Below are positions 3,428-47,765 of a stretch of 64,000 nucleotides of DNA, in pieces. The stretch covers positions 434,001-498,000 of the forward strand of contig JASTWF010000321.1 of NCBI GenBank assembly GCA_030390025.1, in the 5' to 3' direction. The position numbers were made by a program, and so were the translations under genes. Origin of the DNA: Squalus acanthias. Lineage: Eukaryota. The notes under the pieces are model-generated. The model ran no database searches, was not told the origin of the DNA, and saw only the letters and a list, made by a program, of their open reading frames with translations. Positions within the stretch are counted from its first letter, which is position 1, and each line of letters opens with the position of its first letter.

Positions 3428-5711
3428 TAATTTTAATTTATTCATTGTCGGGATGTGGGCATCACTCGCAAGGCCAGCACTTATTGCCCATCCCTAGTTG
3501 CCCTTGAGAAGGTGGTGGTGAGCCGCCTTCTTGAACCGCTGCAGTCCATGTTGTGAAGGGACTCCCATAGTGCTGTTAGGTAGGGAGTTCCAGAATTCTG
3601 TGAGACTTGGAGGGGAACTTGGTGGTAGTGGTGTTCCCATGCGCCTGCCGCCCTTGTCTTTTGAGGTGGTAGAGGTCGCAGATTTGGGAGGTGCTATCGT
3701 GGAAGCCTTGGCGAGTTGCTGCAGTGCATCTTGTAGATTGAACACACTGCAACCATGGTGTGCCATGGTGGAGGCAGTAAATGTTTAAGGTGGTGGATGG
3801 GATGCCAATCAAGCAGGCTGCTTTGTCCTGGATGGTGTTGAGGTTTTTGAGTGTTGTTGGAGCTGCACTCATCCAGGGACATGGAGAATATTCCATCACA
3901 CTCCTGACTTGTGCTTTGTAGATGGTGGAAGGTTTGGGGAGTCAGGAGGTGAGTCACTCGCCGCTAAGTACCCAGCGTCCGTCTAGTTCTTGCAGCCACA
4001 GCATTTATGTGGAGAGTCTAGTTAAGTTTCTGGTCAATGGTGAACCCCAGGATTTTGATGGTGGGGGATTCAACGATGGTTATGCCATTGAACGTCATGG
4101 GGAGGTGGTTAGACTCTCTCTTGTTGGAGATGGTCATTGTCTGGCACTTGTGTGGCACAAATGTTACTTGCCACTTATCATCCCCAACCTGCATGCTATC
4201 CAGGTCTTGCTGCATGTGGACACAGACTGCCTCATTATCTGATGAATTGCGAATGTAACTTGACAATGTGCAATCAGCAGCGAACATCCCCACTTCTGAA
4301 GGTCATTAATAAAGCAGTTGAAGATGTTGGGCCTAGGACAAGGTCCTGAGTAACTGCTGCAGCGATGACCTGGGGCTGAGATGATTGGCCTCCAATAACC
4401 ATAACCATCTTCCTTGTGCTAGATATGACACTATCCAGTGGAGAGTTTTCCCCCGATCCCCATTGACTTCAGTTTTGCTAGGGCTCCTTGGTGCCACACT
4501 CGGTCAAATGCTGCCTTGATGTCGAGGACGGTCACTCTCACCTCACCTCTGGAATTCAGCTCTTTTGTTCATGTTTGGACCAAGGCTGTAATGAGGTCAG
4601 GAGCCAAGTGTTGGCCTTCATTGCAAGAGGATTTGAGTACAGGAGCAAGGATGTCTTACTACAGTTGTACAGGGCCTTGGTGAGACCACACCTGGAGTAC
4701 TGTGTGCAGTTTTGGTCTCCTTACCTAAGAAAGGATATACTTGCCATAGCGGGAGTGCAGCGAAGGTTCACCAGACTGATTCCTGGGATGACAGGATTGT
4801 CATATGAGGAGAGATTGGGTCGACTAGGCCTGTATTCACTAGAGTTTAGAAGAATGAGAGGGGATCTCATTGAAACGTATAAAATTCTGACAGGGCTAGA
4901 CAGACTGGATGCAGGGAGGATGTTTCCCCTGGCTGGGGGGTCTAGAACGAGGGGTCACAGTCTCAGGATACGGGGTAGTACATTTAGGACTGAGATGAAG
5001 AGAAATTTCTTCACTCAGAGGGTGGTGAACCTGTGGAATACTCTACCACAGAAGGCTGTGAAGGCCAAGTCACTGAATAAATTTAAGAAGGTGATAGATA
5101 GATTTCTAGACACAAAAGGCATCAAGGGGTATGGGGAGAGAGCGGTAATATGGTATTGAGATAGAGGATCAGCCATGATCATATTGAATGGCGGAGCAGG
5201 CTCGAAGGACCGAATGGCCTACTCCTGCTGCTATTTTTCTTTGTTTCTTTCTATGTTTCAAGTGGTCCTGGCGGAAACCAAACTGGGCAGCGGTGAGCAG
5301 GTTATTTGAGCGTAAGTGCCGCTTGATAGCATTGTCAATGACAGTTTCCATCACTTTGCTAATGATGGAGAGATGGCTGATGGGGTGGTAACTGGCTGTT
5401 GGATTAGTCCAGCTTTTTCCGGACTGTACATACCTGGCCAATTTACCACTTTGTCGGGTAGATGCCAGTACTGGAGCAGCTTGGCTAGAGGTGCAGCTAG
5501 TTCTGGAGCACAGGTCTTCAGTTCTGCAGCCGGGATGTTGCCGGGGCCCATAGCCTTTGCTGTATCCAGTGCGCTCTACCATTCTTGATATCACGTGGAG
5601 TGAAGCAAATTGGCTGAAGACTGGCTTCTGTGATGGTGGTGACCTCAGGAGCAGGCCGAGATGCATCATCCACTTGGCACTTGTTGCTGAAGATGGTTGT
5701 GAAGGAATCAG
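3428..5711 (-). mobile_element. CR1-clade LINE 'family B', 3' part with internal deletions, interrupted at 4611-5258
   Basis: Minus-strand RT fragments (MFAADCT, WQVTFVPHKCQ, MEYSP, MGPGNIP...APELAAPLAKL). 3' tail and A-rich end near 3428-3490 match the plus-strand copy at 42480-42555. Confidence 0.85.
4611..5258 (+). mobile_element. 5'-truncated CR1 LINE 'family A', 3' end
   Basis: ORF2 C-terminus (LVRPHLEYCVQFWSP, RGDLIETYKIL, RVVNLWN), ctatgttt tail, TSD caagtg at 4605-4610 and 5259-5264. Confidence 0.92.
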
Positions 5712-8700
5712 ACTAGAGTCCTGAATTTAAATAAAGGAAACTACGATGGTATGAGGCGCAAATTGGATAGGATGGATTAGGGAACGTTACTTAAAGGGTT
5801 GTCGGTGGATAGGCAATGGCAAACATTTAAAGATCGCATGGATAAACTACAGAATTTGTTCATCCCTGTTTGGCATAAAAATAAAACAAAAAAGGTGACT
5901 CAACCGTGGCTAACAAGGGAAATTAGGGATAGCATAAGATCCAAGGAGAGGACATATAAATTGGCCAGAAAAAGCAGCAAACCTGAGGATTGGGAGCAGT
6001 TTAGGATTCAGCAAAGGAGGACAAAGGGATTAATTAAGAGGGGGAAAATAGAGTATGAGAGTAAGCTTTCAGGGAACATAAAAACTGACTGTAAAAGCTT
6101 CTATAGATATGTGAAGAGAAAAACATTGGTGAAGTCAAGCGTAGGTCCCTTGCAGTCAGAATCAGGGGAATTTATAATGGGGAACAAAGAAATGGCAAAC
6201 CAATTAAATGCATACTTTGGTTCTGTCTTCACAAAGGAGGACACAAATAACCTCCCATACATGTTGGGGAACATAGGGTCCAATGAGAGGGAAGAACTGA
6301 ATGAAATCAGTATTTGTAGGGAAATGGTGTTAGGGAAATTGACGGGATTGAAGGCCGATAAATCCCCAGGGCCTGATAATCTACATCCTAGGGTACTTAA
6401 GGAAGTGGCCCTAGAAATAGTAGATGCATTGCTGGTCATCTTCCAAAATTCTATAGACTCTGGAACAGTTCCCATGGATTGGAGGGTAGCTAATGTAACC
6501 CCACTATTTAAAAAAGGTGGCAGAGAGAAAACGGGGAATTATAGACCGGTAAGCCTGACATCAGTAGTGGGGAAAATGCCAGTGTCCATTCTCAAAGATG
6601 TAACAGCAGAGCACTTGGAAAACAGTGACAGGATCGGACAAAGTCAACATGGATTTACAAAAGGTAAATCATGCTTGACTAATCTACTGGAATTTTTTGA
6701 GGATGTAACTGGTAGAATAGATAAGGGAGAACCAGTGGATGTGGTGTATTTGGACTTTCAGAAGGCTTTCGATAAGGTCCCGCATAAGAGATTGGCGTGC
6801 AAAGTTAAAGCACATGGGATTGTGGGGGTAAGGTACTGACTTGGATAGAGAACTGGTTGGCAGACAGGGAGCAAAGAGTTGGAATAAACGGGTCTTTTTC
6901 CGAGTGGCAGGCAGTGACTAGTGGGGTACCGCAGGGATCGGTGCTAGGACCCCAGTTATTCACAATATATATTAATGATCTAGACGAGGGTGTAGGGGGT
7001 GGTGTGGTAGGGGTCAGCCTCACCTCTAACTCAGCGAGCGGTTCGAATCGCTCCCATGCCCCTGGTTCTGGACCTTGGACTTATTTGGGGGTTGTGAACA
7101 AAGATGCAGTAGACAACAGGTTCCGATGAAAGAATTTTGACTTTTATTAAAAGAAAAGGTAACAAACTTAAAACACACTTAACACTTAAACAGGTTGGGG
7201 AACACACGGTACAGGCGAGGGAGAAATACAATATACAAAAACCCTTATCCCTCCCAAAAGTTCCACTATCTAGCTAGGTCTTGGTTTCAGGAGATCAGGG
7301 ATAATGCTCACCAAACAGGGGTTTTGACAGTGCGAAATCCAGCCAGGTAAGTTGATTGCGATTTTGAGGTACTCTCTTTTTGTCCTTTGGGGCCTGCCGT
7401 CCCCACGTGGTACCAGTCTGTGAAATCTGCGATGGTGGTCTGGTCGTCGAGTTTTGTTGCGTTGGAGGCTTGTCGGGGCGGTACCTTCTGGGGCTGGACC
7501 GTGGGTTGAGCGATGCCGACTCGCTCCCAGCCTCCAGTGACCTTGGCTAGTGGCTGCTAGTGCTAGACCGTGTGCTGAGCGATGCCGACTCGCTCCCAGT
7601 GGCCTCAGCTCTAGCCCTTGCCTGGCCTAGTCTGTCCTTGCCTCCGATCTTGCCCCGGGTCTGCCCCGGGGCCTTGCTGCTTCTCTCCACCTCCTGCTCG
7701 TGTCGTGTGGCTGGTAGTGTCTTGCTGGAACTTGCTGCAACTGGAACAGAGCTGAGAGAGACTTTCTTGGGGGATTAGGCCCTCAATTATACTGTTCAGA
7801 CCCTTTGTCTTTTTCGCGCCAAAATCCCTTTCCTAAATCGGTTTCGTGTTGAAGTGATTTAGGTTTCAGTTGAGGCCTGTTCATTCCATTGTCTTAGTTT
7901 TGCGGGCTTGTTAAGTTTTGATGGTTTTAACTTGGTGTTAAATTGTCCTGATGGCTTCCGATGTCTCCCATTTAGGCAGGGCCTTTATCTACATGCCAAA
8001 TCTTGTCCCTATAGATACCTGGCTGATTGGATTTTGATGAAGTAATGGCTGTACTAGATGTTTTATTGTTTACAGGCTTCTGGCATCCTGTTTGGGCCTG
8101 GGGATATTCAAAAGGTGTCTTGAATTATTCAATTTTGGGTGTGTTGTGAGGTTTTGGGTGAGGTTCTTCCTCCTGCCTGGATTGCAGTGCAAACAAATTC
8201 CAGACAGCTTGACACCAAAAGTTGTCCACTGCCTCGCCACACCACTTCACAAAGGTGTTTTTTTTCCCATAGTGATTTTCAAAAGTCATTTTTCCTCAGG
8301 TTTTTTTCTTCCCTGATCTTTTTAATGTCCAAAACTGAGGTTTTTACCTCAAATCACTTCACTTATGTCCCATCATCCCAAATTCGTAGGAACAGTACAA
8401 AAATCACCCCTTTTAGGGTTCTATACGAGTTTCTGGGGAATTTTGCGAAGCTTACAGGGAACTAGATGTAAATATGTCCAAGTTTGCAGACGACACAAAG
8501 TTGGGTGGGTGTGTGTGTTGTGAGGAGGATGCAGAGAAACTCCAGTATGATTTGGACAGGTTGGGTGATTGGGGAGGTGCATGGCAGATGCAGTATAATG
8601 TGGATAAATGCGAGGTTATCCACTTTGGTGGCAAAAACAGGAAGGCAGATTATTATTTGAACGGCAATAGATTGGGAAAAGGGGAAGTTCAACGAGACCT

Positions 8701-9420
8701 GGGGGTCCTTGTGCACCAGTCGTTGAAGCTAAGTATGCAGGTGCAACAGGCGGTTAAGAAGGCAAATGGTATATTGGCCTTCATAGCGAGAGGATTCGAT
8801 TACAGGGGCAAGGATGTCTTGCTGCAGTTGTACAGGGCCTTGGTGAGACCACACCTTGAGTATTGTGTGCAGTTTTGGTCACCTTATCTGAGGAAGGATG
8901 TTCTTGCCATGGAGGGAGTGCAGCGAAGATTCACCAGACTGATACCTGGGATGGCAGGAATGACGTATGAAGAGAGATTGGGACGATTGGGCTTGTCTTC
9001 GCTAGAGTTTAGAAGAATGAGAGGGGATCTCATTGAAACTTATAAAATTCTAACAGGACTAGACAGACTAGATGCAGGAAGGATGTTCCCGATGGCGGGG
9101 GAGTCCAGAACCAGGGGTCACAGTCTAAGGATAAGGGGTAAGCCATTTAGCACTGAGAGGAGGAGGAGGAATTTCTTCACCCAGAGAGTGGTGAACCTGT
9201 GGAATTCTCTACCACAGAAGGCAGTTGAGGCCAATTCATTAAATATATTCAAGAATGAGTTAGATATATTTCTTAAGGCTAAAGGGATCAAGGGATATGG
9301 GGAGAAAGCAGGGACAGGGTACTGAATTTGGATGATCAGCCATGATCTCATTAAATGGCGGAGCAGGCTCGAGGGCCGAATGGCCTACTCCTGCTCCTAT
9401 ATTCTATGTTTCTATGTGTC
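5711..9420 (+). mobile_element. CR1 LINE family A, copy 1 (ORF2 RT region), interrupted by a solo LTR at 6991-8456
   Basis: ORFs 5799-6839 and 8474-9325 carry [36 protein letters not shown] and KFADD; tail ttctatgtttctatgtgtc. Confidence 0.95.
6991..8456 (-). mobile_element. Solo LTR (about 1.47 kb) related to the ERV LTR at 17102-18569
   Basis: TG...CA ends. It interrupts CR1 at gacgaggg|gggaac, and the intact site is seen in copy 2 near 21035. Flanking ggg duplication. Clear homology of 7012-7310 to 17103-17395 and of the 8440-8456 end to 18550-18569. Confidence 0.88.
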
Positions 9421-10947
9421 TATCCCTATGATAGAGTGATTGGAACGCCCACAATCTACTGGGACTGGGTAGGCTTCAGAGGCTAGGCGGAGCTGACACG
9501 GGCTCAGTGAATTGCTGAACGGGTGGAGGGCTGCGAGGTGTTTGTTGCTAATCCAGGAGGGGACTAAACCTTGTTTTAAATCCTCCAGGTTGCTGCAGCC
9601 CTCGCCCAGCAACCATGCCCCGTATAGCACACACACCTCATTCTGTGCAGCCTGATCCGAAGCATTCCTATCCTCCCGTATGAATGCATTTACTGTTTTA
9701 GCGTGTCTCTCTAGCTCAGCAATGATCTCCTTTAAATGGACCATCATAGCTTGGTCCTCGTGTAGCTCTGAGCCTACCGCTTTGTTTTCTTCCGTTAGTA
9801 TCTTTCGTAGTTGGGTTTTTAGACCATTTATCTGTGTTTGTAGTTCTATATCGTCCAGGCTGTTTATTACAGAGGATCCTGTATTGTAGATAGTGAAAAT
9901 ATTGTTCCAGGTCCCCCTTCTTTGTCTCCCTGCGCCCATAGTGTGCTCTGCGTGTAGTTTGTACAGCTCTGCTTTGTCTATGTTGGCAAAGTCAAATTCG
10001 TAGAATTTCCTAAACATTTCTTTCAGCAGGGCCTGGTATAGCTGTTCTGTCTCCTTAGGACACCATTCAGGTAAGTATACCTCGGTAAGATTTAAGATAA
10101 CTGAAGCTACTGCCTAGTGTACCCCCTGGTAGAGTACCTTTTCGGTCGGCACTAGCACTAGCCCATTCTCTGGTCCCTTGGTGGTGGTAGGACACCTCTC
10201 CATTACTGTCCGTGATGTTGGGGTCGTGGGCAGGGGCTTTCGGGGTCGTGCTACTAGTTCGGTGGCGTTGACTGGGATCGGGGAGTGTGGGAGCGCGCAC
10301 GCATGCAGGCTAGAGTCCCACCCCATCCCCTTCCCGGTGTCTTGCCATTGTCTGGAGAAGATGATGGATATGCCTGTGGGGCAGGCCTTCTCTGATCCCC
10401 ACATACAGACATAGATTCCCTGTTCCGACTCCCACCACTTATCCCAACACACACTCATACCCCCTTGGGTCCCTGTGATCGTCCGGTAGGTGTCGTTCCC
10501 CAGTCGTTCCCAGTCAGCTGTACGGTCCCCTATGTCCCTGCTCAGCTTCCTGAGCCACCACCACCTATCCAGGGGAATCCGTGCCTTGCAGGTGAGACAC
10601 ACACGTTTCCCCTCAGTGACGCTGACCCTTGTAGCAACGACCTGTACCCTGGGGCACGGGATGGAGGCCTCCCCGTAGGTGAACCCGGTCTGGCTGGAGT
10701 ATTTTGTGGAGTTAGACCCCAGCCACCTTGGCCAGCTTCCCTCATGGAAGTAAATAGCGAGCTCCTCCACACCCGGTTTGCCACCCCCAGCGGTAACGAT
10801 CGGCGCTCTCTCTCCCGAGCACCCATAAATGTGGGAGTCCTCCACGTCACCTCGGTCACCGATGCTCACCCCTACCAGGGCGAGCAGGAGCAGAACCCTT
10901 GTCAAGCCGATTTCCTCTCTGTAGGGACACACAAAACAGATAGCCAT
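9420..10947 (-). pseudogene. env: env, 5' half: signal peptide, Ig-like domain, Pro/Thr stalk, furin site RQRR, candidate fusion peptide and heptad repeat
   Basis: ORFs 10114-10947 and 9412-10017 are in one frame, separated only by a TAG at 10114-10116. Hydrophobic VLLLLALVGVSIG; RQRR at 9916-9927 followed by GTWNNIFTIYNTGSSVINSL and a long helical segment. Confidence 0.85.
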
Positions 10948-11107
10948 GTCCCGAGAAGGTTCTCTGGCCTGACAGGTGACCGAGTCTCGAAAATGTACTT
11001 ACTTAAGTAAAAATAATTCACTAAAACTAAAACTACCAAAAACTGTAAAACACACCTAAAATACCTAAAAACTCTGTACATCTGCCGCCCGTCTCCGGAC
11101 GGCCAGG

Positions 11108-14100
11108 CTAATTCCTGTATGGCCTCTGCCTTGGGCAGCCTCTGAGCAGCCTGTACGCCTGGGCGTAAGGTGGCCTGTACCGCAGGACCCGGAGAGTCCT
11201 TCTTAAAACGGCTGAGGGTTTCCCTGAATCCCTGATAATCCGGTGAGTGTCCCCTCCTGTGCTACAGCACACTACCCCCTTTGGTGTGGCTGCTGAGTCC
11301 CTGTCCTGTCCTTTGGGTTCCCCGCAGCCTGAGGCCGCAGGCTGGGGATCCCTCTTCTTAGAATGACCACTGACTTTGGGTATTCTCTTTCGGGTTGTGG
11401 CCCTTGCTGGGCTGAACCATTGAAACTCTGGTGACCACGGTCGTTTTGGCTGTGGTGTGCGAGGAGACCTTCTCAGGACTCTGGCTACCGGGGGTGCGTC
11501 CAAGTCCCACATAATTGGTGGGGTAGCCCCTCCGGTGACACAAGCCACTGCCCCTACCGGTGCGGTCTGTGAGTCTGCCACAGCTGCTGGCTGAGGCTCT
11601 CTAACTTTAGGGTGGTTTGCCCTTGCTGGCTGTTCCCCTTTGGATTTAAACAGCTTACACTGGTTAATGTGGAACCACTTGGTGCGGCGGGGCATCTTTA
11701 TGGCGTAGACCATGGGGCTTGCCTTGTCGACAATGCTGTACGGCCCCATGTACAGTGGTTCGAAACTCCCTACCCGGGCAAAATTCCTAACCATGACCTG
11801 ATCCTCTATCTCCCACTCGTGGTGCTTGCGGGGTTCTAGCAGCAGTCGGATACTCCGATGCTGTTTTCCCATGTTGCTAGCAGCCTGCCAGTGAACCTGT
11901 TTAAGGTGTTCAAACAGATTCCTGACAAAGCTGTCCCAGTTGACCTCACTGAGCTTGACCCTCTGTGAGCACCGGGTCTAGCACATGGGTGGGGATCCAC
12001 ATAATCCTACCAGTCATGAGCTGGTGTGGGGAATACCCCGTGCTTTTTGACTGGCTGGCTCGGATCCCCATTAGGACCAACGGTAAGACTTCTACCCACT
12101 TCTTGGGTGAGTCTCCCGTTTCCTTCCGTAGCCTTTCCTTAATGGTACGGTTTAAACGCTCCACAGGACCCGATGACTGCGGGTTGTGGGCGACGTGCCA
12201 TTTCCCTTCAATGCCGAGTACCCTGAGGGTCTCTTGCATGACCTGCCCGGTAAAATGACTCCCCTGGTCGGACTCCACATACTGCGGTAGGCCCCATCGT
12301 GAGAACACTTCCCTGACCAGGATCCTAGCCGTACCCAATGCAGTAGCAGTACGGCATGGGAACGCTTCCACCCACTTCGAGAACACATCCACCAGGACTA
12401 GGCAGTACTTAAAGCCTCCCTGGGCGGTGGGTAGGGGCCCAATGTAATCGACCTGGATCGACTGCCATGGTCCCTCTACCCTCCTGATGTGTCCCATAGA
12501 TACCTTCCTTTTCTGGGGGTCTGGGTTGTTAGCAGCACACACCAAACAGCCGGCACAAAACTCGCGGACCTCTTCCCTGAGTCCTGGCCACCATCCTGTC
12601 TGTTCCACCCGTTGCCAGGTGGTCTCAGGTCCGGGATGTCCCGCTCCTGGACCCTCATGGGCCAGTTGGAGGAATTCCCTTCGGTGCTGCTGCGGCACCA
12701 CCCACTGCTCCCCCCTGAACAGCATGCCTTCCTTAATGGTGATGGCTGCTGTGCCGTACGGGCCCTCTATCTTTTCCCCTTTTTCCAGGGCGTTCAGGAC
12801 GGCCTTGAGGACGGTATCCTGGGCTTGGGCCTGCTTTAAGTCCGGGGCCAAGGCTACCCCCTGGGTGCCTCCCTTGCTCCGGATTGCGGCTACTGGACCT
12901 GTTTGGTACAGATCCCAGAATACCCTTTCCCTGGCCCCCTGTTTGGCCAGCTCGTCTGCCTTACAGTTACTCTCCCACCTGGGCTCTGTCTTTGAATGGG
13001 CCTTGACCTTATGGATATAGACCTTCCCTTCCTCCCCCACGGCCGCCATGATTTTCTCCAACAGGGGCTTTATGGTGAGGGGTCTCCCATCAGCGGAGGT
13101 ATAGCCGCGACGGGACCAGATGGCCAGGTACTCCGTACACGAATTGCATGTGAACATGCTGTCCGAGCAAATCGTGTATGGGGTAGGGAACTTCTCGGGG
13201 TGTGTAACCACGTACACTACCGCAGACAGTTCAGCCTGCTGGGCGCTCATGGTGCTGGGGAGTTTAATTGCCAGGGCAATGCCTGCCTCCTGGTCATAAA
13301 CTCCACACCCGGTGAGTCGCGCGCCAGCAGATACTGTGCTCGAACCGTCCACATAGATTTCGCGGCCTGTGGGGTGTATCCCGGCCTGAAAACCTATGTT
13401 GACTTCCCATACCCCTTCAATGGAACACCGGTGGGCAGTCCCTGGGTAGATCATGTTGGCTGCGAGCTTCAGCTCGCAGAGACCTTTCACCCTTAGGTCC
13501 ATCTGTGAGAGAAGCAGGGTCCAGCGAGCAATACGGGCACTGCTCACTGTCCCATCTTTGATTCTCCCATCTAGGAGCATCTGGGTGGGCGTGTGATGGG
13601 TGAGCAGGGTGATGGGAGATGTTCCTGTGAAGATCAATGATCTTTTCACAGCGCAGTGAGTGGCGAGGAGGTGCCTCTCACAGTTGGAATAGCCCTTCTC
13701 CACATCGGTGAGTATCCTGGAGGAGTAAACCACTGGTCTCAGCCGGTCGTGCCTCTCTTGGAGCAGCACGGCACTGAGACTGTCCCCACTGGCTGCCACC
13801 TCCAGGAAAAACTCCCTCTCCCCATCAATGGCCCCTAGAGCCGGCGCGGTCTGCAGATCTTTCTTTAACTTGAGAAATGCTGCCTCGCAACCCTCGTCCC
13901 AGGCCCACTCTACACCCTTGTGTAGGAGTCGGAGCAGAGGGGCTGCGGTGGCTGCGTAATCCTCAATGAAATCTCTGCAGTACCCGGTTAACCCTAGAAA
14001 GGATCTCACTCCTGTGACTGTGTTGGGGGCTGGTAACTCCTGCACTGCTTCCCTCCTAGCTTTGTCGATGGCCCTTTCCCCAGCGCACACAGTTAGTCCG

Positions 14101-15308
14101 AGGAATTTTACTTCCTGTTGGCCGATCTGTACCTTCTTTGGGTTCACTTTGAAGCCTTCTTGCCGGAGCAGCTCCAGCAGTTCAGCCAGTAGTGGACCGT
14201 GTTCCTCTCCCTCATCGGTGAACAGGAGTAGGTCATCCACATACTGTACCAACTGCCGGGGCCGGCTGAAGCCCTTCAAACAATTCGCCATGCATTGGTG
14301 AAAAATGCTAGGGCTGTTGTGGAAGCCCTGAGGTAGGCAGTTCCAGGTGTACTGTTGGCCTTTAAAAGTGAAGGCGAACTTGTACTGGTCCTCTCTTCGT
14401 AAAGGGATGGACCAAAACCCGTTGGAAAGGTCCAGCACTGTGAAAGTGGTCGCAGATGCTGGGATACTTCCGATGAGGTCGGTGATGGCTGCTACCGTGG
14501 GTGCACAGGCGGGGATGTTACGGTTGAGTACCCGATAGTCCACTGTGGCCCTCCAGGAGTTGTCCGGTTTTCTAACCGGCCACAGTGGAGAGTTTACGTG
14601 GGTGGCTATCGGTCTCAATACCCCCTGTGTTACTAAAGAAGCCATGGCCGTTTCCATGTCTGCTTCCGCCTCCCTGGGGAAATTGTATTGCTTCTGTGGT
14701 CGGGTCATGGGATCCCCGCTGACACTAACCTCAACCCCGTTTACCCTCCCACAATCGTGCTTGTGAGTGGCAAATGCTGCGAGATGTGCTCGCACAAATG
14801 CCTGGTATGCCATCGGAGTGTTACTGACCATTTGTTCGAGGTCATAACCTTCCTTTGGTTTCAGGGTGCACAAGGTCCTCTTGCCCTGTTTCCCTGGGAT
14901 GACTGCCACTTCACTTTCTCTGCCAGTACGTGCTCCCCACAGACAGTGGTTCCTAAGATCCACTAGAATCCTGTGGCCTGTGATAAAGTCGGCCCCCAGG
15001 ATCCCCATCCCTTCCCGCTCCCATTTCATCAGGACACAGGTCCACTTGGTGTGGAGTGCTCCTAAATGAATGGACAGCGGGATGGAGAACGAGCCAGCCT
15101 GCTTGTTACCTGTAAACCCCACTAAGCTGTACGGGACCCCATTAGACAGAGGTGAGGCGGCGGGGTTGGCTGAATAGACTATGGTGCTGGAAGCTCCAGT
15201 ATCTAACAGATAAGTCCCTTTCACCTTCTCCACCTCCATCCTAACGAGTGTTCTCTTCCATGCGTCGTACTCCAGGGGACACAGGTAGACAGGCTGCGCT
15301 GGCTCGAG
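11108..15308 (-). pseudogene. pol: pol: protease, RT, degenerate RNase H (tether), second RNase H, integrase with GPY/F motif; one frameshift near 11946
   Basis: LLDTGAS; LPQGFHNSP and QYVDD; FFLEVAAS...PVVYSSR; IYVDGS, SAQQAELSA, SDS, KVKAHS, NCKADELAK; HHCC; QVDY, SDQG, VERLN; YMGPY. Confidence 0.95.
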
Positions 15309-17050
15309 TCATAAGTCTGCGTTAGGGGGGGCAGATGGGGTTAAAGCACCAGTGGCGGTGGCTACTTTCCCCGGGCCGTTTACTAGAGCTCGGATCGCAG
15401 CCATGACCGAGTCTAACGTGGGGGGAGAGGTCGGTGCTTCGGTGCTCGGGGCAGGAGCTGGAGAGTTCTTCCCTATGTTATCCTTCCACGGATTCCTGCA
15501 GTCTTTTCTCCAATGCCAACTCTTCCCGCACCCGAAGCAGTTACGCTTCGTGTCGGAAAGGTTACCCCCTTCCTGGTGCCACTCTTTCTTTTTGCTAGGC
15601 CTTATTTCATGTACCTTTCCCTTAGGTGGGTGCTCTTCTGTCCCTCTACCGTTCCGGTAAGCCAGGGTCAGTTGTCTGACCACTGTCTCCTCGGTGACCT
15701 GGGGGTCTTTCGGGTCAAACAACAGCTCAGCCTTGGCCCTGATCCGTGGCAAGCTGTTTGCCACTAGGCTTCGGAGCCAGTGGGCCAGCTCATCCTGATT
15801 CAGGTGAGCCTGGTCGAGAACTCCATTACAGGCACTCCTGTACACAGGCCACAGTCGGTCTGCGAAAGCCTGTGGGGTCTCCCCTACTAGCTGGGTTGTC
15901 TTCTCCACCCGGGAGAAGGGACTACCATCATTCATTCCCATGGCCTCCAGAACTCCCTCTCGGATAGCGGCGTATCCACCCTGCCCTCTTTTACTCTCTG
16001 CGGAGAGGGACTGGTAGATTTTACTATCTAGGAAGAACAGGAGCATCTTTGCCATCTCGGCATCATCACAATCGTTGATGCCCCCGCTGCCTGTTCCACT
16101 TCCATGAAGTGGACCGAGGGGTGAGCTTGCCCAGGTGGCTTATCATAGCCCTAAGCTGTTGGGTGCCGTGCGGAGCCACGAATTGGCTTTCAAGGGGTCC
16201 TTGACCCCCACCACCGCCGGGCGGGCCGAACATTTGCTGCCGGACCGGGCACATCGGCCCCGGCTCCAACCTTTCCTGCATTGGTTCGCCCTCCCCTCCC
16301 TGCTGCCAAACCGAGTTAAAACCCGGCGCCACAGGTGGTGGTGGTGTGCTCTCCCTGCCAGCCTCACAAATCGCCCGTCCCTCCTGCTGCCCAACCGGGT
16401 CGTTCCCAAGGCGTCACAGGTGGCGTCCGAACAGTTTCCCCCTGCCCCTCCAGATCCACCCGGGCCGCACCCGGGCTTAGTAGGCATACCATGCCTTTCG
16501 CCCTGGACAGAGCAAGGTTCAAATTCTCTATTTGTTTCTGGCAGGGGCCGTGATCTCCCGCCTCATACACCCTAATTCTTGCTATCTTGTAAGCTGCCTG
16601 GACGTCTCTCAACCTCTCCTCCTGCTCTCTTACTTGTTTGGCCAAGCGGGCGTTCTCTTCCCGTAACACCAGCTCACTGGTTTTAGCTTCGGTGACCTGA
16701 CACTGAAAATATTCCTGCCTGTTCCTATGTGTTTCCACTAACTGCATTTTTTCCTGATTTCGGGTGGTTAGTTCATTCAGTAATGTTTCCCCTGCTAGGG
16801 CCCTTGCTTGAGACAGCTGAGCAGACTCCTGCAGCTCTGCCTTAAGTCCCTCAACATGTTTGTCTAACAGCTGGATCTGTCGCTGGGAGCAGATCAACCA
16901 GATGGCTTTCTCCACAGATTTCTTGTGGTCTTTGCTCTCAGTCCATTTAGCTGCAGCGTCTATTGGACGCTCAGCACGCAACAGACTGAGTACCCATTTC
17001 TTGGTTATGTTCACTTTCTCGAACACATAAGAGGAAATCCTCTCTTCCAT
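15309..17050 (-). pseudogene. gag: gag with N-terminal coiled coil and CCHC zinc knuckle, frameshifted
   Basis: ATG in good Kozak context at 17050 (aagATGG). Coiled-coil-like ORF to about 16500; CFGCGKSWHWRKDC knuckle in ORF 15309-16055. Pieces lie in different frames. Confidence 0.85.
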
Positions 17051-17101
17051 CTTGGTTCTCTCCTCAAAAACAGTGTCCACTGCATCACATCCCTTTTGCC
17101 A

Positions 17102-18569
17102 AGGTCAGCTTCACCTCTGACTTCTGAGCGGTTCGAATCGTTCCCACTCCCTTGGTTCTAGACCTTGGACTTATTTGGGGGTTGTGACAAAAAGTGCAGC
17201 AGACAACTGGTTTTGATGCAAGAACTTTGATCTTTATTGAAGAAAGTAAAACACAACACAAATACTCTTAACACTCTAAAAGTGGGGAACACTTCGGTAC
17301 AAGCGAGGGAAATAACATTAGAAGAATACTTCACCCCTCCCAATCCCACTTCGCTAGCTAGGTTGGACTCCAGAGGATCAGGGATGATACTCACCAGAAT
17401 CCTTGACAGTTAGGTTAGTTCGCGGTTTTGGAGTTCACTCTATATGTCGGTTGGTGTCTGCCGTACCCCGTAGGCGGTAGAGGACTTCAACTGCGTATCT
17501 GGTCAGTCTTCGCGAGTCCGCTGATGCGGTAGGGTGCGTATTGGATTTATCAGGTGAGTACCACTTTTCTTTGGTTAGAAGTAGGGTTTAGAGTTTTTTT
17601 AAGGGAAATTCTTACCCAGGGGTAAGTCAGGAGTAGATTGTAGAGTGGAAACTTTGCGGATCTTCGGTTTTTCTTCGAGTTGGTTTTCATTGGTCGCGGT
17701 GGCCCAAATATTGGTACTTGGTGTACGGTTGGTTGTTTCGTGAGGGCCTTGTTGCCGCGAGGTGTCCGATGGTCACTGAGGCGGTCGTTCTGGTTTCTTC
17801 TCGTGTCAGCCTACTTTGTTGGATGGTCTGGCCTTCGAGCTGTCGACCTCCTGGCTGGACACGGAATGCTGAACGGTGGTGTTGCAGAACTGTGTTGCGG
17901 AGAATGCCTCCGTCGATGTCTTCTTGTTCTTCCTTCCTCTTCTTCTTTTTCAGGTTGAGAACGGGCCTTCAATTATACCCATTGAAGCTCCCTTATCTGC
18001 GCGCCAAATCAGGTCTCGGTCTTTGTTAGATTTTGGCGGGCTCGATAACGGTAACTGGTTTGTTAAGGTGTGAAGTGGTTCCGGGATTGCCCCATCCTGT
18101 CGATTTACCACTTAATCGGAGTTTGTTTATTCTTATGTTTTGGGTTTTTCTTGGCTGGGCCTAGGATTTCTATAGAGTAGGCCGAAGTAATCTGTTTTAT
18201 GCATGTCTTAATGGGCTCTGTAACTTGGGGTGGAGACTGGTTTTCCTCGGGTTTATTGTTAGGATGCTAATGTCTGATAGGGGCCGATTTAAACTCCCAG
18301 TGAGATCATGTGGTTCCCCAGACAGTTTCCATTAGCTCCAATACCCAAACTGTTTTTACAGAGGTTGATCTCACCTTCCTTCACAGCCTTTTCTCCCTTA
18401 CAAGCCCAGACATGTTTTAAAAATACCAAATCTTGGTTTTTGCTCAAAATGTCCTTCGGTTAGGCCCAATGCACTTCACCACCCTGTAATAGCTAGAAAA
18501 GAGTCCAAAGTCTTTTTCCTTAGGGTTTTTCTTAGTGTTAGGGGATCTGTGAATTTTGAGAATCTTACA
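17102..18569 (-). mobile_element. LTR of the ERV (about 1.47 kb)
   Basis: Begins TGTAAG immediately after the PPT. TATAAT at 17972-17977, AATAAA near 17233, homologous to the solo LTR. Confidence 0.85.
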
Positions 18570-18580
18570 GTCCCCCCTCT
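18570..18580 (-). promoter_or_regulatory. Polypurine tract (agaggggggac) preceding the LTR
   Basis: Plus strand gtcccccctct directly abuts the LTR end cttaca. Confidence 0.85.
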
Positions 18581-18863
18581 GATACTTTACTCGCTAGAGT
18601 ATCATACTGGGTGAGCAAAATTCCTGATCTCCGAGAGCCAACCTTCCCCTGTAGTTTACCTATCTAAGACCCAAAACACACATTTCCCTTTAGGTGTAGT
18701 GTTCAGATGCAGACACAGGTAAGAATTCAGTTACTTTCACATCCAAGCACAGAGGGGGTCCAGCACCCCTGCACCACTTGGAAAAACACAGTACATACAT
18801 AGTAAAAAATAATACACGGTCACAAAAACTTTATATATTTTAATAAAACAACTAAGGCTTGCC

Positions 18864-19716
18864 CTAAACCTGGCCATAGGCTTTATTGTAATGCTGGTCC
18901 CATGCTTTCTCATGTCGGGATCGGAGCACTCTGTCCTTTCCCTTGCATTTTGTGCACAGTAAGTAGACAACTATACCAAGCTGGCAGACCACTAAAATGT
19001 GGGAAGCCATTCTGATCCAGGAAGGGACCTCTGTATTTTTGAAAATATCCCACCAGGGTGGAATTATGATGCCCGAAATCTCAGCCCCTATCTCGACTGT
19101 CTTTTGTTCCAGAGTGTAGAAATGTTTTTGTGATACTTCTACTGCTTTGAGTAGGGCAGTAAGATGTTCGGGTAGAGGGGGAATCTTATAGCTGAAGAAT
19201 GTGACATCGTTTTGCAGGTTGGTGATGTTTTCCCTGACAGTGAGGTGAACAGTGGAAGGTTCAGGAATGGGGACAATCCGTTCCTGGGCCACTTGAACTT
19301 CTGCCTCGGGTTTAAAGCAGAAACTGCTGTCACTCACCGGACACCAAATGTGCTGTCCATGCTGGTGGGGCTTGTGTCAATATGTCCCACCCGCTATGAA
19401 TGCTGCCTGTGGGGGAACATGGCCTTGTGCCATTACCTCCATGGTACAGTTGATAGGCCGTGCACCTGCAGCTTTAAAGCTGCACTGTGGTCTAGAATAG
19501 GCATTCAAGTGCTGGGGACACAATATTATGTGTGCACCCCGGCTCCGGCACCCGGAGAGGTCAGTACCTGTCATAGCGTGCTCCCACTTTATGACATAAG
19601 GTGGGACTGCTGCGAAATGGACGTGTGCACCCCCTTGAATGATCTCAATGTTCTCCACCCTGTATACCGGTGCGGGTCGGGCTGTCCCACCCATGACCGG
19701 CATCCTCACTACTATC
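18864..19716 (-). pseudogene. env: env, 3' half: Cys-rich region, heptad, transmembrane helix and cytoplasmic tail
   Basis: ORFs 19377-19718 and 18864-19337 are in one frame with a single TGA. TM-like ILVVCQLGIVVYLLC followed by a basic tail; joins the env 5' half in frame. Confidence 0.85.
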
Positions 19717-21984
19717 ATAATATGATAGAATTCTTCATTAAGATGGAGAGTGAAGTAGTTGACTCAGAGACTAGGGTCCTGAATTTAAATAAAGGAAACT
19801 ACGATGGTATGAGGCGCGAATTGGCTAGGATGGACTGGGGAACATTACTTAAAGGGTTGACGGTGGATAGGCAATGGCAAACATTTAAAGATCGTATGGA
19901 TGAACTACAGAATTTGTTCATCCCTGTTTGGCATAAAAATAAAACAAAAAAGGTGACTCAACCGTGGCTAACAAGGGAAATTAGGGATAGCATAAGATCC
20001 AAGGAGAGGACATATAAATTGGCCAGAAAAAGCAGCAAACCTAAGGATTGGGAGCAGTTTAGGATTCAGCAAAGGAGGACAAAGGGATTAATTAAGAGGG
20101 GGAAAATAGAGTATGAGAGTAAGCTGGCAGGGAACATAAAAACTGACTGTAAAAGCTTCTGTAGATATGTGAAGAGAAAAAGATTGGTGAAGTCAAGCGT
20201 AGGTCCCTTGCAGTCAGAATCAGGGGAATTTATAATGGGGAACAAAGAAATGGCAAACCAATTAAATACATACTTTGGTTCTGTCTTCACAAAGGAGGAC
20301 ACAAATAACCTCCCAGAGATGTCGGGGAACATCGGGTCTAATGAGAGGGAGGAACTGAATGAAATCAGTATTTGTAGGGAAATGGTATAAGGGAAATTGA
20401 CGGGATTGAAGGCCGATAAATCCCCAGGGCCTGATAATCTACATCCTAGTGTACTTAAGGAAGTGGCCCTAGAAATAGTAGATGCATTGCTGGTCATCTT
20501 CCAAAATTCTATAGACTCTGGAACAGTTCCCATGGATTGGAGGGTAGCTAATGTAACCCCATTATTTAAAAAGGGTGGTAGAGAGAAAACGGGAAATTAC
20601 AGACCGGTAAGCCTGACATCGGTAGTGGGGAAAATGCTAGAGTCCATTATAAAAGATGTAATAGCAGAGCACTTGGAAAACAGTGACAGGATCGGACAAA
20701 GTCAACATGGATTTACAAAAGGTAAATCATGCTTGACTAATCTACAAGGTGTAACTGGTAGAATAGATAAGGGAGAACCAGTAGATGTGGTGTATTTGGA
20801 CTTTCAGAAGGCTTTCGATAAGGTCCCGCATAAGAGATTAGAGTGCAAAGTTAAAGCACATGGGATTGGTGGGGGTAAGGTACTGACTTGGATAGAAAAC
20901 TGGTTGGCAGACAGAAAGCAAAGAGTTGGAATAAACGGGTCTTTTTCCGAGTGGCAGGCAGTGACTAGTGGGTTACTGCAGGGATCGGTGCTAGGACCCC
21001 AGCTATTCACAATATATATTAATGATCTAGACGAGGGAAGTAGCTGTAATATCTCCAAGTTTGCAGACGACACAAAGCTGGGTGGGCGTGTGTGCTGTGA
21101 GGAGGTTGCAGAGAAACTGCAGTATGATTTGGACAGGTTGGGGGATTGGGCAGATGCATGGCAGATGCATGGATAAATGCGAGGATATCCACTTTGGTGG
21201 CAAAAACAGGAAGGCACATTATCTGAACGGCAATAGATTGGGAAAAGGGGAAGAGTAACGAGACCTGGGTGTCCTTGTGCACCAGTCGCTGAAGGTACGC
21301 ATGCAGGTGCAGCAGGCGGTTAAGAAGGCAAATGGTATGTTGGCCTTCATAGCGATTCGAGTACAGGAGCAAGGATGTCTTGCTGCAGTTGTACAGGGCC
21401 TTGGTGAGACCACACCTTGAGTATTGTGTGCAGTTTTGGTCGCCTTATCTGAGGAAGGATGCTTTTGCCATGGAGGGAGTGCAGCGAAGATTCACCAGAC
21501 TGATACCTGGGATGGCAGGAATGACGTATGAAGAGAGATTGGGTCGATTAGGCTTATATTCGCCAGAGTTTAGAAGAATGAGAGGGGATCTCATTGAAAC
21601 TTATAAATTTCTAACAGGACTAGACAGACTAGATGCAGGAAGGATGTTCCCGATGGTGGGGGAGTCCAGAACCAAGGGTCACAGTCTAAGGATAAGGGGT
21701 AAGCCATTTAGGACTGAGAGGAGGAGGAATTTCTTCACCCAGAGAGTGGTGAACCTGTGGAATTCTCTACCACAGAAGGCAGTTGAAGCCAATTCATTAA
21801 ATATCTTCAAGAAGGAGTTAGATATATTTCTTAAAGCTAAAGGGGATCGAGGGATATGGGGAGAAAGCAGGGACAGGGTACTGAGTTTGGATGATCAGCC
21901 AGGATCTCATTGAATGGCGGAGCAGGCTCGAGGCGCCCAATGGCCTACTCCTGCTCCTATTTTCTATGTTTCTATGTTTCTATG
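19716..21984 (+). mobile_element. CR1 LINE family A, copy 2
   Basis: Near-identical to copy 1 over long stretches; RT motifs; (ttctatgt)n tail at 21960-21984. Confidence 0.95.
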
Positions 21985-23527
21985 ACAGTCACTCTCACCT
22001 CACCTCTGGAATTCAGCTCTTTTGTCCATGTTTGGCCCAATGCTGTAATGAGGTCAGGAGTCAAGTGGCCCTGGCGGAAAGCAAACTGGGCATCGGGGAG
22101 CAGGTTATTTGTGCTTTGTTAGTGCCTCGTGATAGCATTGTCGATGGCAGCTTCCATCACTTTGCTGATAATGGAGAGATGGCTGATGGGGTGGTAACTG
22201 GCTGTTGGATTAGTCCCGCTTTTTGCGGACTGGCCATACCTGACCAATTTACCATTTTGTCGGGTAGATGCCAGTACTGGAACAGTGTGACTAGAGGTGC
22301 AGCTAGTTCTGGAGCACAGGTCTTCAGCACTGCAGCCGGGATGTTGTCGAGGCCCATAGCCTTTGCTGTATCCAGTGCGCTCTACCGTTCTTGATATCAC
22401 GTGGAGTGAAGTGAATTGGCTGGAAACTGGCTTCTGTGCTGGTTGGACCTCAGGAGGAGGCCGAGATGCATCATCCACTTGGCACTTGTGACTGAAGATG
22501 GTTGCGAAGGCTTCAGCCTTGTCTTTTGCAGCCACGTGCTGTGCTCCGCCATCATTGAGGATGTGGATGTTCAAGGAGCCTCCTACTCCCGTCAGTTGTT
22601 AATTGTCCATCACCATTCCCGACTGGATGTGGCAGGACTACAGAGCTTTGATCTGATTCATTGGGTGTGGGATCGCTTAGCTCTGTCTATAACATGCTGC
22701 CTCCGCTGTTTAACATGCATATAGTCCTGTGTTGTAGCTTCACCAAGTTGGTTTCTGATTTTCAGGTACACCTGGTGCAGCTCCTGGCATGCTCTTCAAC
22801 ACTCCTTATTGAACCAGGTGTGGTTTGATGGTAATGGTAGAATGAGGGATATGCCAGGCCATGAGGTTACAGATTATGGTGGAATACAATTCTGTTGCTG
22901 CTGATGGTCCACAGCACCTCATGGATGCCCAGTTTTGAGCTGCTAGATGTGTTCTTAATCTATCCCATTTAGCACGGTGGTAGTGTACAGAACATGATGA
23001 AGGGGTGTCCTCAGTGACTCGGTAGTACCATAATTAACCAATCTGGCTGAGTCCTGAAGGACATAGCAGCCAGATTGGTTCACGGCAGGTGGTGAGAGAA
23101 TAAACACGAGCCACTACCAAGCCACACTTGGTGATGGACATTGAAGTCCCCCACCCACAGTACATTCTGTGCCCCAGCAGCCACAGTGCGCCTGGTGAGG
23201 AGGGAGTAAATGTTTAAGATGGTGGATGGGGAGCTGATTAAGCGGCCTGCTTTCCCTTGGATTGTCTCGAGCTTCGTGTGTGTTGTTGGAGCTGTAACCT
23301 TCCAGGCAAGTGGAGAATATTCCATCGCACTCCTGACTTGTGCCTTGTAGAGGGTGGAAAGGCTTTGGGGAGTCAGGAGGTGCTGAGGCACTTGCGCAGA
23401 CTACCTAGCATCTGACTAGCTCTTGTAGCCACAGTATATATTGGGCCGATCTAGTTAATGTTCTGGTCAATGGTGACCCCCAGGATGTTGATGTTGGGGA
23501 ATTCAACAATGGTAATGTCATTGAATG

Positions 23528-23799
23528 TGATGCGGAGATGCCGGTGTTGGAGTGGGGTGGACACAATTGAGAGGTCGCACAACACCAGGTTATAGTCCAA
23601 CAGTTTTATTTTAAATCACAAGCTTTCGGAGTTAAAACTCCTTCGTCGGGTGAAGTGAGGAGATACAGAATCGTCAAAGCATACGCTTTGACGATTCTGT
23701 ATCTCCTCACTTCACCCGACGAAGGAGTTTTAACTCCGAAAGCTTGTGATTTAAAATAAAACTGTTGGACTATAACCTGGTGTTGTGCGACCTCTCAAT
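23528..23799. mobile_element. Penelope-like element 3' end in inverted (palindromic) configuration
   Basis: 115 bp perfect arms 23566-23680 and 23685-23799; TSD (t)aatgtcattgaatg; PLE-type tail gaaagcttgtgatttaaaataaaactgttggactataacctggtg. Confidence 0.85.
23712..23749 (+). ncRNA. Minimal hammerhead-ribozyme-like motif (variant core) within the PLE tail
   Basis: tcac-CCGACGA-aggag/ctcc stem-GAAA-gctt-gtga; the canonical core is CUGANGA...GAAA. Confidence 0.55.
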
Positions 23800-26700: not shown

Positions 26701-27902
26701 GCAGGACTGCAGAGCTTTGATCTGATCCATTGGGTGTGGGATCGCTTAGCTCGGTCTATAGCAATGTTCCTGCTGTTTAACATGAATATAGTCCTGTGTT
26801 GTAGCTTCACCAAGTTGGTATCTGATTTTCATGTACACCTGGCATGCTCTTCAACACTCTTCATTGAACCAGGGTTGGTTTGATGGGAATGGTAGAGGGA
26901 GGGATATATCAGCTCATGAAGTTACAGAGTGTGGTGGAATACAATTCCATTGCTGCTGATGGCCCACAGCGCCTCCTTGGTGCCCAGTTTTGAGCTGCTA
27001 GATCTCTTCTGATTCTATCCCATTTAGTACGGTGGTAGTGCCACACAACACAATGAAGGGTTGTCCTCAGTGTGAAGACGGGACTTCATCACCACAAGGA
27101 CTGTGCGGTGGTCACTGCGACCAATACTGTCATGGACAGATGCATCTGCGACAGGTAGATTGTTGAGGACGAGATCAAGTAGCTTTTTTCCTCGTGTTTG
27201 TTCTCTCACCACCTGCTATGAGCCCAGTCTGGCAGCTATCTCCTTGAGGACTTTGCCAGCTTGGTGAATAGTGGTACTACTGAGCCACTCTTGGTGATGC
27301 CTGAGCAGCCACAGTGCGCCGGATGAGGAGGGAGTAAATGTTTATGATGGTGGACGGGGGGCTGATTAAGCGGACTGCTTTCTCCTGGACTGTGTCGCGC
27401 TTCTTGAGTGTTGTTGGATCTGCAACCATCCAGGCAAGTGGAGAATATTCAATCACACTCCTGACTTGTGCCTTGTAGGTGCTAGAATGGTTTTGGGGAG
27501 TCAGGAGGTGAGTCACTTACCGGCGAATACCCAGCCTCTGACCTGCTCTTGTATTTACGTGGCCTGGCTAGTTACTTTGCTGATGATTGAGAGTAGATTG
27601 ATGGGGCAGTAATTGGCCGGATTGGATTTTTCCTGCCTTTTGCGGAAAGGACATACCTGCCCAATTTTCCACTTTATCAGGTAGAGGCCAGTACAGGAAC
27701 AGCTTGGCTAGAGGTGCTGCTAGTTCTGGAGTGCAGGTCTTCAGCTCTACAGCTGTGATGTTGTTGGGGCCCCACAGCCTTTGCAGTATCCAGTGCGCTC
27801 TGACGTTTTCTGATATCAAGTGGAGTGAAGTGAATTGGCTGAGGACTGGCATCTATGAGAGTGGGGACCTCAGGAGGAGGCGGCGATGGATCCACTTGGC
27901 AC

Positions 27903-47421: not shown

Positions 47422-47765
47422 CATTTCTCCTAACCAATAAAAACAGTGATAATAATAATTGAAATATTCCTAAAAAGTGCGTCTTGTCATTTGGGCCTGC
47501 AAGCCCCGGCCATATTACTTTCTCAAAACATTCCCACATGACAGGGTCGATGGTAAATGTTATTGTCAACAGGTCATCTCACACATGTAGAATGCTGAAC
47601 TATTTAGCCTAAACAATACAGTAAATCGGAGGATGTGACGCTACGCTGTGGCCATGCCGTACCTTGAGCACTGGGCCCTGTTCTGGTCATGAAGACATCA
47701 AGGGAGTTTTTCAATACCAGGATGCACTGGATGAGACTGATCCTTGGGGGAAAAGGACTGAATTT

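Follow-up and report, generated by a model that had tools for sequence, protein, structure and literature searches.

We have analyzed a stretch of 64,000 nucleotides from the genome of Squalus acanthias (contig JASTWF010000321.1, positions 434,001 to 498,000), referred to here in its whole length as the window, which carries an endogenous retrovirus (ERV) on its minus strand. Our reading, to which we give a probability of roughly 72%, is that the retrovirus in the window is a dead, rearranged provirus in one of its paralogous copies. This provirus would belong to a very abundant ERV family of a cartilaginous fish that is related, in a broad sense, to the snakehead retrovirus (SnRV) and has an envelope protein (Env) of the type of the F proteins of the Mononegavirales. 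The element is an endogenous retrovirus with the retroviral order of tether and RNase H in its pol gene. An earlier sequence-only reading of the same DNA had described it as lokiretrovirus-like; it is best filed as SnRV-like in the broad sense, and not as a lokiretrovirus, a foamy virus, an epsilonretrovirus or a Gypsy element.

Pol enzymes

The open minus-strand pol frame found by reading the open reading frames (ORFs) of the window extends over 1120 codons, from 15308 to 11946 (11946..15308), and matches to Pfam and to the Protein Data Bank (PDB) identify its domains. These comprise a protease (PR; 14982-15242, a weak aspartic protease match), a reverse transcriptase (RT; 14088-14576, RVT_1, E 1.4e-35) in which the YVDD box can be read at 14232-14243, a tether (13503-13901, RT_RNaseH_2/RT_RNaseH), a second RNase H (12933-13361, RNase_H PF00075, E 2e-19) and the zinc domain (12522-12698, Integrase_H2C2) and core (12180-12470, rve) of the integrase (IN), all on the minus strand. 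A C-terminal SH3/GPY domain of the integrase (11108..11977, minus strand) gives weak matches to SH3_Tf2-1 and Integrase_p58_C and lies in a frame other than that of the pol ORF. There is a frameshift between the IN core and this domain near 11946-11977, and in the paralogue L012 the domain is contiguous with pol.

Active Ty3/Gypsy RNase H carries DAS at the spot where the tether of the window reads EVAAS, and the RT_RNaseH stretch at 13503-13901 is therefore a degenerate tether. The second RNase H displays the motifs YVDGS, AELSA, SDS, KAHS and ADELAK. Thus the pol gene is as the sequence-only reading had described it: a YVDD reverse transcriptase followed by a tether without the first catalytic Asp and by a second RNase H with the full set of motifs. 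The presence of a tether and a second RNase H is a trait common to all retroviruses, lokiretroviruses included. A Ty3/Gypsy element would have a single active RNase H and a pol outside the retroviruses; here the PF00075 domain is present and pol falls in a retroviral clade with support of 100 against seven Gypsy rows.

Affinity to SnRV and to lokiretroviruses

The reference for SnRV was a 10,688-nt IMG/VR contig (L074), the RT of which is verbatim the SnRV sequence in the supplement of Wang & Han. By BLAST, the window RT is 44% identical to that of SnRV over 262 amino acids (222 bits); three gammaretrovirus-type genomes score 164-176 bits and four foamy viruses 156-174 bits. The RNase H scores 71 bits against SnRV, 64-69 bits against class I ERVs, 46-52 bits against gammaretroviruses and 34-52 bits against the four foamy viruses, and the motif C.xYLAxWxRRG...ADG is common to the window and SnRV. 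The integrases of the two are 37% identical. In an hhalign comparison the env profile aligned with SnRV Env with a probability of 86.5% (E 4.6e-6) over 271 columns, which run from F2-like strands through the cleavage site and heptad repeat A (HRA) into domain I.

Lokiretroviruses are defined by RT phylogeny, a PF00523-like Env and a dual RNase H, and their RNase H groups with that of foamy viruses (PMC7947760). The RT motifs of the window are LPQGFHNSP and LVQYVDDLLL, whereas the lokiretrovirus consensus RTs examined, from the supplement of Wang & Han, have CPFGY.NSP and (L/I)IYVDDIL. A hand count over 259 RT positions gives about 34% identity of the window to Loki-Lch and 44% to SnRV; over the first 141 of the RT positions, also counted by hand, Loki-Lch is about 40% identical to SnRV and about 35% to the window. 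The label "lokiretrovirus-like" is not supported: RT motifs and identity, the type of RNase H and the env alignment all favour SnRV. The exclusion of a lokiretroviral affinity rests on these comparisons of RT, RNase H and env, as the rows of the tree described below hold no lokiretroviral sequences. The screen of Wang & Han covered six chondrichthyan genomes (Callorhinchus, Rhincodon, two Chiloscyllium species, Scyliorhinus torazame and Leucoraja) and found lokiretroviruses in none of them (PMC7947760 supplement). Two of these negative species, Chiloscyllium punctatum and Scyliorhinus torazame, carry homologues of the env of the family described here.

Phylogeny

A tree of the region from RT through the tether to RNase H was computed for 44 rows with a quick IQ-TREE run (LG+C20, with support values from the SH-aLRT test only). 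The sequences were cut to this region before alignment with MAFFT, and the tree was rooted on the seven Gypsy rows. All retroviral rows group together with support of 100. The window element belongs to a clade of eight rows that also contains elements from the coelacanth and from frogs (support 94). This clade is sister (88) to a group (100) that unites SnRV with the class I elements and includes the gammaretrovirus-type genomes. The window clade lies outside the class I groups (99-100) and outside the foamy clade (100), which consists of the four exogenous viruses and a foamy-like ERV of the source genome. An RT phylogeny was among the checks that the sequence-only reading had proposed; in these RT-RNase H rows, free of lokiretroviruses and Odin elements, the clade lies outside the spuma, class I and Gypsy groups and beside SnRV and class I.

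The SnRV-like group has a place in the literature. According to the available text of PMC4977317 and PMC12193657, SnRV-like ERVs are the main ERV category of the coelacanth and are also found in amphibians, and that of PMC4422223 reports SnRV-like ERVs from the elephant shark (CmiERV lineage I). The "SnRV-like" assemblage takes its name from Hayward 2015, as cited in PMC4977317. The SnRV-like clade of the literature is probably the same assemblage as the window clade.

Envelope anatomy and predicted fold

The env gene of the window is split in two, as detailed below. Its N-terminal part (9412..10947, minus strand) is 88% identical to the intact paralogue L012 and runs from the signal peptide to the start of domain III, while the C-terminal part (18864..19728, minus strand) contains domains I/II, heptad repeat B (HRB), the transmembrane (TM) helix and a short tail. 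Overall, the order of the Env protein is signal peptide, N-terminal domain, F2-like strands, the furin-type site RQRR, fusion peptide, HRA, beta-rich domains I-II, HRB, TM anchor and short tail. The furin site (window 9916-9927) had been described as early in the ectodomain; the site itself is present, but it lies about 345 residues into a protein of about 800 residues. The predicted TM helix was found at 18954-19019. The N-terminal domain of about 250 residues that precedes the F-like part is presumably receptor-binding. Modelled alone, it reached a mean predicted local distance difference test score (pLDDT) of only 35, and its weak matches to Ig_3 (E 0.0013-0.085) and, in one case, to V-set (E 0.045) are a lead only.

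A model of Env was made with AlphaFold from the natural open env of the paralogue L016, with its homologues as the alignment. The mean pLDDT is 55, with values of 65-92 in the blocks 250-320 and 430-660. In the model, RQRR is followed by G-rich and hydrophobic residues and a helix of 60 residues (395-456, HRA), and a second helix (741-786) spans HRB and the TM anchor; this is the order of basic cleavage site, HRA and HRB seen in class Ib fusion proteins. Foldseek returned 211 PDB matches at E<=1e-3, of which the best 40 are all F proteins of paramyxo- or pneumoviruses (top match 1ztm, E 1.2e-9). By VIA-align, residues 256-669 of the model superimpose on residues 28-434 of henipavirus F (Z 12.1, root mean square deviation 6.2 A over 322 residues), and 104 chains reach Z>=8. 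The F2 equivalent begins at about residue 250. In the BFVD, 54 matches at E<=1e-3 include mononegaviral glycoproteins and baculovirus F, as well as the Envs of walleye epidermal hyperplasia virus 1 (WEHV-1, 1.2e-10), walleye dermal sarcoma virus (WDSV, 8e-8) and feline foamy virus (1e-4). The structural comparison with paramyxo/pneumovirus F and baculovirus F for which the sequence-only reading had called thus gives matches to both, with a natural paralogue in the place of a repaired env. These predicted structures support an assignment of Env to the class I fusion proteins, with the "class Ib" fold of paramyxovirus F and foamy Env. If so, furin cleavage would prime Env, and HRA and HRB would refold into a six-helix bundle and drive fusion as in F.

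Sequence profiles add little. No Pfam family covers the intact paralogous Envs (four tested). A distant env homologue, P0061, matches Baculo_F with E 0.0011, which is under the cut-off, and a search of the ESM Atlas with env gave one chordate cluster at 0.83, which was uninformative.

Gag, long terminal repeat and layout

The gag gene (15309..17050, minus strand) encodes an N-terminal coiled coil, a capsid-like part and one CCHC knuckle. Its frame is interrupted in the window between 16364 and 16139, and the paralogue L014 has a continuous gag frame of 423 amino acids. The gag stop codon is UGA (15309..15311, minus strand) and is in frame with pol, a read-through arrangement; according to the available text of PMC13517186, read-through of an in-frame stop between gag and pol is the arrangement of gamma-, epsilon- and snakehead retroviruses. 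The primer-binding-site position (17062..17079, TGG...), the sole long terminal repeat (LTR; 17081..18569, 1489 bp, TG...CA) and the polypurine tract that adjoins it (18570..18580) were read from the sequence on the minus strand; the LTR also has the deepest coverage by contigs from sequencing runs. The family would have a simple retroviral layout, in which two LTRs enclose gag, an in-frame UGA, pol and env. Pol would be produced by read-through of the stop codon and would consist of PR, RT, the degenerate tether, RNase H and an IN with a GPY-type C-terminal domain.

A rearranged copy

The span 9420-19716 had been taken for one provirus of which the whole genome could be reconstructed. This span is not colinear: env is cut by a long interspersed nuclear element (LINE), which we take to be CR1/L2-like, the element is circularly permuted, and it has one LTR. 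From left to right, the window contains LINE A, N-terminal env, pol, gag, LTR, C-terminal env and LINE B. The N-terminal part of env starts at 10947 and continues for about 510 codons past pol to 9412, where it meets the 3' tail of a plus-strand LINE, and the C-terminal part (19728 to 18864) is found upstream of the single LTR and gag. LINE copy A, on the plus strand, consists of a 5' part with an ORF2 fragment (5710..6990, 95% identical to 19768-21037) and a 3' part (8456..9411, 93% identical to 21034-21983), the (TTCTATG)n tail of which ends at the env junction. Between them lies a solo LTR (6991..8455, minus strand) from another, though related, ERV family. It has TG..CA ends and a target duplication of 3-4 bp, and is missing from LINE B at 21034-21037. 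The likeness of this solo LTR to the main LTR is confined to 300 bp on the U5 side (7012-7313 versus 17103-17396, 77%). LINE copy B (19729..21983, plus strand) has its 5' end at the other env junction.

The natural intact env paralogues are continuous across the break in the window env, and comparison with the uninterrupted env of L012, L013 and L016 reveals a target-site duplication, with one copy at 9412..9427 and a second, slightly altered copy at 19711-19728 (both env sequence, minus strand). Contigs from two of four sequencing runs, the RNA nature of which is only guessed, link 19711 directly to 9420. Since the same env sequence of about 16 bp is found at both junctions, a single LINE insertion by target-primed reverse transcription, with no loss of env, is indicated. 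The copy has decayed in other ways as well: env has in-frame stops at 10114-10116 and 19377-19379.

The permuted block is found more than once. The ERV in its permuted form, together with LINE B and the tandem array, is present on the contigs C898 and C3416 with 99.1-99.6% identity. The left flank has matches of 97-98.7% over 2-8 kb at six loci, and 19 of the 150 scored env matches in the genome share an identical frame of 233 codons. We conclude from this recurrence on other contigs that segmental duplication has multiplied a block of at least 26 kb and that a single misassembly is unlikely. One paralogous copy (L037, on C898) has an insertion of 744 bp at 5370-6115, by the env stop and 3' untranslated region (window ~18833), which is missing in the window copy.

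The history that we propose has three steps. A 5'-truncated LINE would have entered env by target-primed reverse transcription and left a target duplication of about 16 bp. Next, the provirus would have come to lie between two LINE copies in permuted order and with a single LTR. The most economical route would be recombination of a circle with one LTR (or of an LTR-LTR recombinant equivalent to it) via its LINE with a similar LINE in the genome; such a recombination would put the env junctions at the 3' end of LINE A and the 5' end of LINE B. Finally, the block of at least 26 kb would have been multiplied by segmental duplication. This circle-recombination history of the window copy is inferred and unproven. 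An origin from a rolling-circle concatemer or from tandem proviruses was also considered, and is less economical, as LINE B has a natural 3' end and is followed by sequence that is not from the ERV.

Contigs from all four sequencing runs also contain joints within env, from 18962 to 10855, which bring together the first and last 30 or so env codons; variants join 18924 to 10906 and 18785 to 10910. We set aside an env-internal splice as their origin, because 18962 is not preceded by AG and the end points are variable. Env-deleted DNA variants, or env-deleted transcripts, may account for them instead.

Abundance, hosts and co-resident ERVs

The family is abundant in the source genome (3.71 Gb). 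A search with an env piece gave 7621 candidates, 150 of which were scored and include open frames of 800-960 codons; a pol search gave 27235 candidates, and among the 41 that were scored, open frames reach 1424 codons. The scored env and pol matches are 87-100% identical. Three loci (L013, L014 and L015, on G000 C8, C20 and C3020) have gag or a short pol remnant followed by an open env, and are thus pol-deleted with both structural genes open.

Outside this genome, relatives of env are few: there were only 41 among 1.84 billion cluster representatives. The cartilaginous-fish host that the sequence-only reading had suspected is borne out, as seven of ten env homologues looked up are from sharks, a skate or a sawshark, with two more from frogs. 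Across all searches, the env relatives come from six genera of sharks and rays and two genera of frogs; a protein search with the env profile gave 11 matches, with no further lineage and no viral name among them. The pol relatives include ERV proteins of Latimeria and of the frogs Rhinophrynus, Aquarana, Pyxicephalus and Xenopus, at 39-45% identity, and one further relative at 77-81%. Near-identical pol words (share 0.21-0.65) also occur in sequencing runs under eight different organism labels, which suggests an ERV family common to several related species.

The same genome also harbours separate foamy-like ERVs, with 11 matches to Foamy_virus_ENV (best E 3e-22). These are at G000 C20:14482918-14490040 and five other loci (L019-L030), and the pol of the C20 locus (L025) groups with exogenous foamy viruses.

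Neighbouring features in the window

To the right of LINE B is a tandem array (21984..28500) with units of about 1.8-2.3 kb, which are 88-96% alike by self-comparison. A related unit is found at 3749-5714, left of LINE A, so that the LINE-ERV-LINE block has such units on either side; a short fragment of a LINE 3' end is contained in one of them (4611-5255). Farther to the right, at 35347-39294 on the minus strand, is an LTR retrotransposon with an open pol of 988 codons, in which PR, RT, RNase H and IN can be recognized by eye, after an open gag of 326 codons with two CCHC-like knuckles. This retrotransposon looks young. A C-rich satellite of about 7.6 kb (47600-55250) has a GC content of 0.62-0.66 and a GC skew of -0.6 to -0.7, and several of its frames are open and read as SPSLPEPPFPSL-type repeats.

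Weighing the alternatives

Several results weigh against the reading given at the outset. The Gag of the family matches SnRV Gag over the zinc knuckle only, with an E value (0.036) that is not significant, and the gap of 295 bp between the env stop and the LTR is too small for accessory ORFs of the SnRV type. An exclusive clade of the window group and SnRV, a grouping named after the tree had been seen, is rejected by the approximately unbiased (AU) test (p 0.0024, with a loss of 29 log-likelihood units, lnL), so that the name "SnRV-like" can be used only broadly, for a paraphyletic group. The AU test does not reject a tree in which the window clade lies outside every other retrovirus sampled (p 0.121; 5 lnL units worse). 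The tree was computed without lokiretrovirus, Odin, exogenous epsilonretrovirus or published SnRV-like ERV sequences, and of 54 rows, ten that were long or fragmentary were omitted (P0143, P0023, P0022, L071, L073, P0081, P0006, P0073, P0082 and P0080). None of the four intact paralogous envs matches PF00523 at E<=10, and the PDB, searched with the env protein and with its profile, gave chance matches only and no F protein. The basis of the F claim is thus a model, predicted with moderate confidence: the F-type env of the sequence-only reading stands at the level of the fold, by Foldseek and VIA-align, but not at the level of sequence. For the history of the copy, the 5' ends of LINE A and LINE B are only about 39 bp apart, an awkward coincidence for two independent insertions, and the divergence between the two LINEs has no switch point, which recombination of a circle does not explain.

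The element could instead belong to a loki-like lineage that extends the lokiretroviruses to chondrichthyans and inherited its F-type env from a lokiretroviral ancestor. The dual RNase H with its degenerate tether and the F-like fold of the Env model would be in keeping with this, as would the weak match of one window env fragment to PF00523 (E 0.17; 10.6 bits, against a cut-off of 29.8) and the basal position of the clade that the AU test leaves standing. By eye, the lokiretroviral Env consensus and the family Env also agree in a ..LCP.. motif and in how their hydrophobic strands are ordered. The coiled coil at the N terminus of gag recalls the smc gene of some lokiretroviruses, but, as in SnRV, it forms part of gag and has no gene of its own. 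Nor is the F fold diagnostic of lokiretroviruses, because it is shared by foamy Env, which has the F core according to the available text of PMC11468914, and by the Env models of WEHV-1 and WDSV. With an RT closer to SnRV (44%) than to Loki-Lch (about 34%) and different in its motifs, an RNase H of the SnRV/class I type where that of lokiretroviruses groups with foamy viruses, an Env that aligns with SnRV Env, and six of six screened chondrichthyan genomes negative, two of these from species with homologues of the family env, we consider a lokiretroviral origin very unlikely.

A separate, deep-branching lineage of cartilaginous fish, coelacanth and frogs near the base of the Retroviridae, belonging neither to the SnRV clade nor to the lokiretroviruses, is a more serious contender, although we still think it improbable. 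The window clade falls outside SnRV and class I, which group with SH-aLRT support of 100, and the two topology tests, one against an exclusive grouping with SnRV and the other tolerant of a fully basal position, are what such a lineage would give; so are the rarity of env relatives in the cluster representatives and an Env that no Pfam family covers. However, the free tree makes the clade sister to SnRV and class I with the foamy viruses excluded (88), Env is homologous to SnRV Env, and ERVs of the coelacanth, amphibians and the elephant shark, probably the same elements, are already filed as "SnRV-like" in the available text of PMC4977317 and PMC4422223. We give hardly any credence to a foamy-like (class III) or an epsilon/gamma-like (class I) ERV. 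The window clade is outside both the foamy (100) and the class I (99-100) groups, no matches to PF03408, TLV_coat, MLVIN_C or Gag_p30 were found by Pfam in the window and the intact envs, and the source genome has foamy-like env loci of its own (the 11 matches above). The resemblances on this side are that the integrase of prototype foamy virus is the best solved-structure match for IN (119 bits), that the RTs of murine leukaemia virus and foamy viruses are similar in the PDB search (229 and 213 bits), that foamy Env is F-like, and that gag and pol are joined by read-through as in gamma- and epsilonretroviruses. Overall, we prefer the SnRV-like assignment in its broad sense.

Implications

The claim of lokiretroviruses in cartilaginous fish is removed by this analysis; what takes its place is an SnRV-related lineage with canonical enzymes and an Env of predicted paramyxovirus-F / foamy-Env fold. 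No statement on an F fold in SnRV-like or epsilonretroviral Envs was found in the literature searched, bioRxiv supplements being outside the search. The comparisons suggest that the lineages with an F-like Env are the shark/coelacanth/frog clade, SnRV (by homology), the walleye epsilonretroviruses (by models), the foamy viruses (by a solved structure) and the lokiretroviruses. We tentatively raise the idea, which we hold to be possible rather than likely, that the F-type ("class Ib") Env is shared and perhaps ancestral among early-branching retroviruses of lower vertebrates, and not a special acquisition of lokiretroviruses. If this is true, Mononegavirales-like Envs would be common in the retroviruses of fish and amphibians, with a bearing on how often envelopes have been swapped. 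It would also bear on the scenario preferred in PMC9040795, the independent acquisition of env by lokiretroviruses and canonical retroviruses. Should the window clade lie deep, near the base of the Retroviridae, the gamma-type Env would be a later replacement. The window copy itself is a clear instance of a circularly permuted provirus with one LTR that was spread by segmental duplication and not by reinfection.

Comparison with known systems

Lokiretroviruses and the family described here have in common the tether and RNase H, an Env of the Mononegavirales-F type and aquatic lower-vertebrate hosts. They differ in RT motifs and identity, in the type of RNase H and in the PF00523 sequence match, which is missing in the family.

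With class Ib fusion proteins, the family Env shares the core of domains I, II and III, furin cleavage before the fusion peptide, and long HRA and HRB. Foamy Env has its extra domain inserted within the surface subunit, whereas the extra, presumably receptor-binding domain of the family Env is N-terminal; the family Env also has no leader peptide or second membrane span, unlike foamy Env, and no sequence match to PF03408 or PF00523, unlike foamy Env and paramyxo-pneumovirus F, respectively. The Envs of the epsilonretroviruses WDSV and WEHV, viruses that also have fish hosts, match the family Env model through their BFVD models, but are much larger (1159-1317 amino acids).

SnRV differs from the family in having accessory ORFs, and its Env exceeds 970 amino acids, with a tail of 136 residues (tail length from the available text of PMC12193657), compared with about 800 amino acids and a short tail in the family. 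The gag stop is UAG in SnRV (PMC13517186) and UGA in the family. As noted, the family is not the exclusive sister of SnRV, and sequence similarity of Gag is not detectable. In spite of these differences, SnRV is the best exogenous match of the family for RT (44%) and RNase H, and the Envs are homologous. The two have gag and pol in one frame across a stop codon, an N-terminal coiled coil in gag and a single CCHC knuckle, and the SnRV-like assemblage and the family have relatives in the same range of hosts: coelacanth, amphibians and cartilaginous fish.

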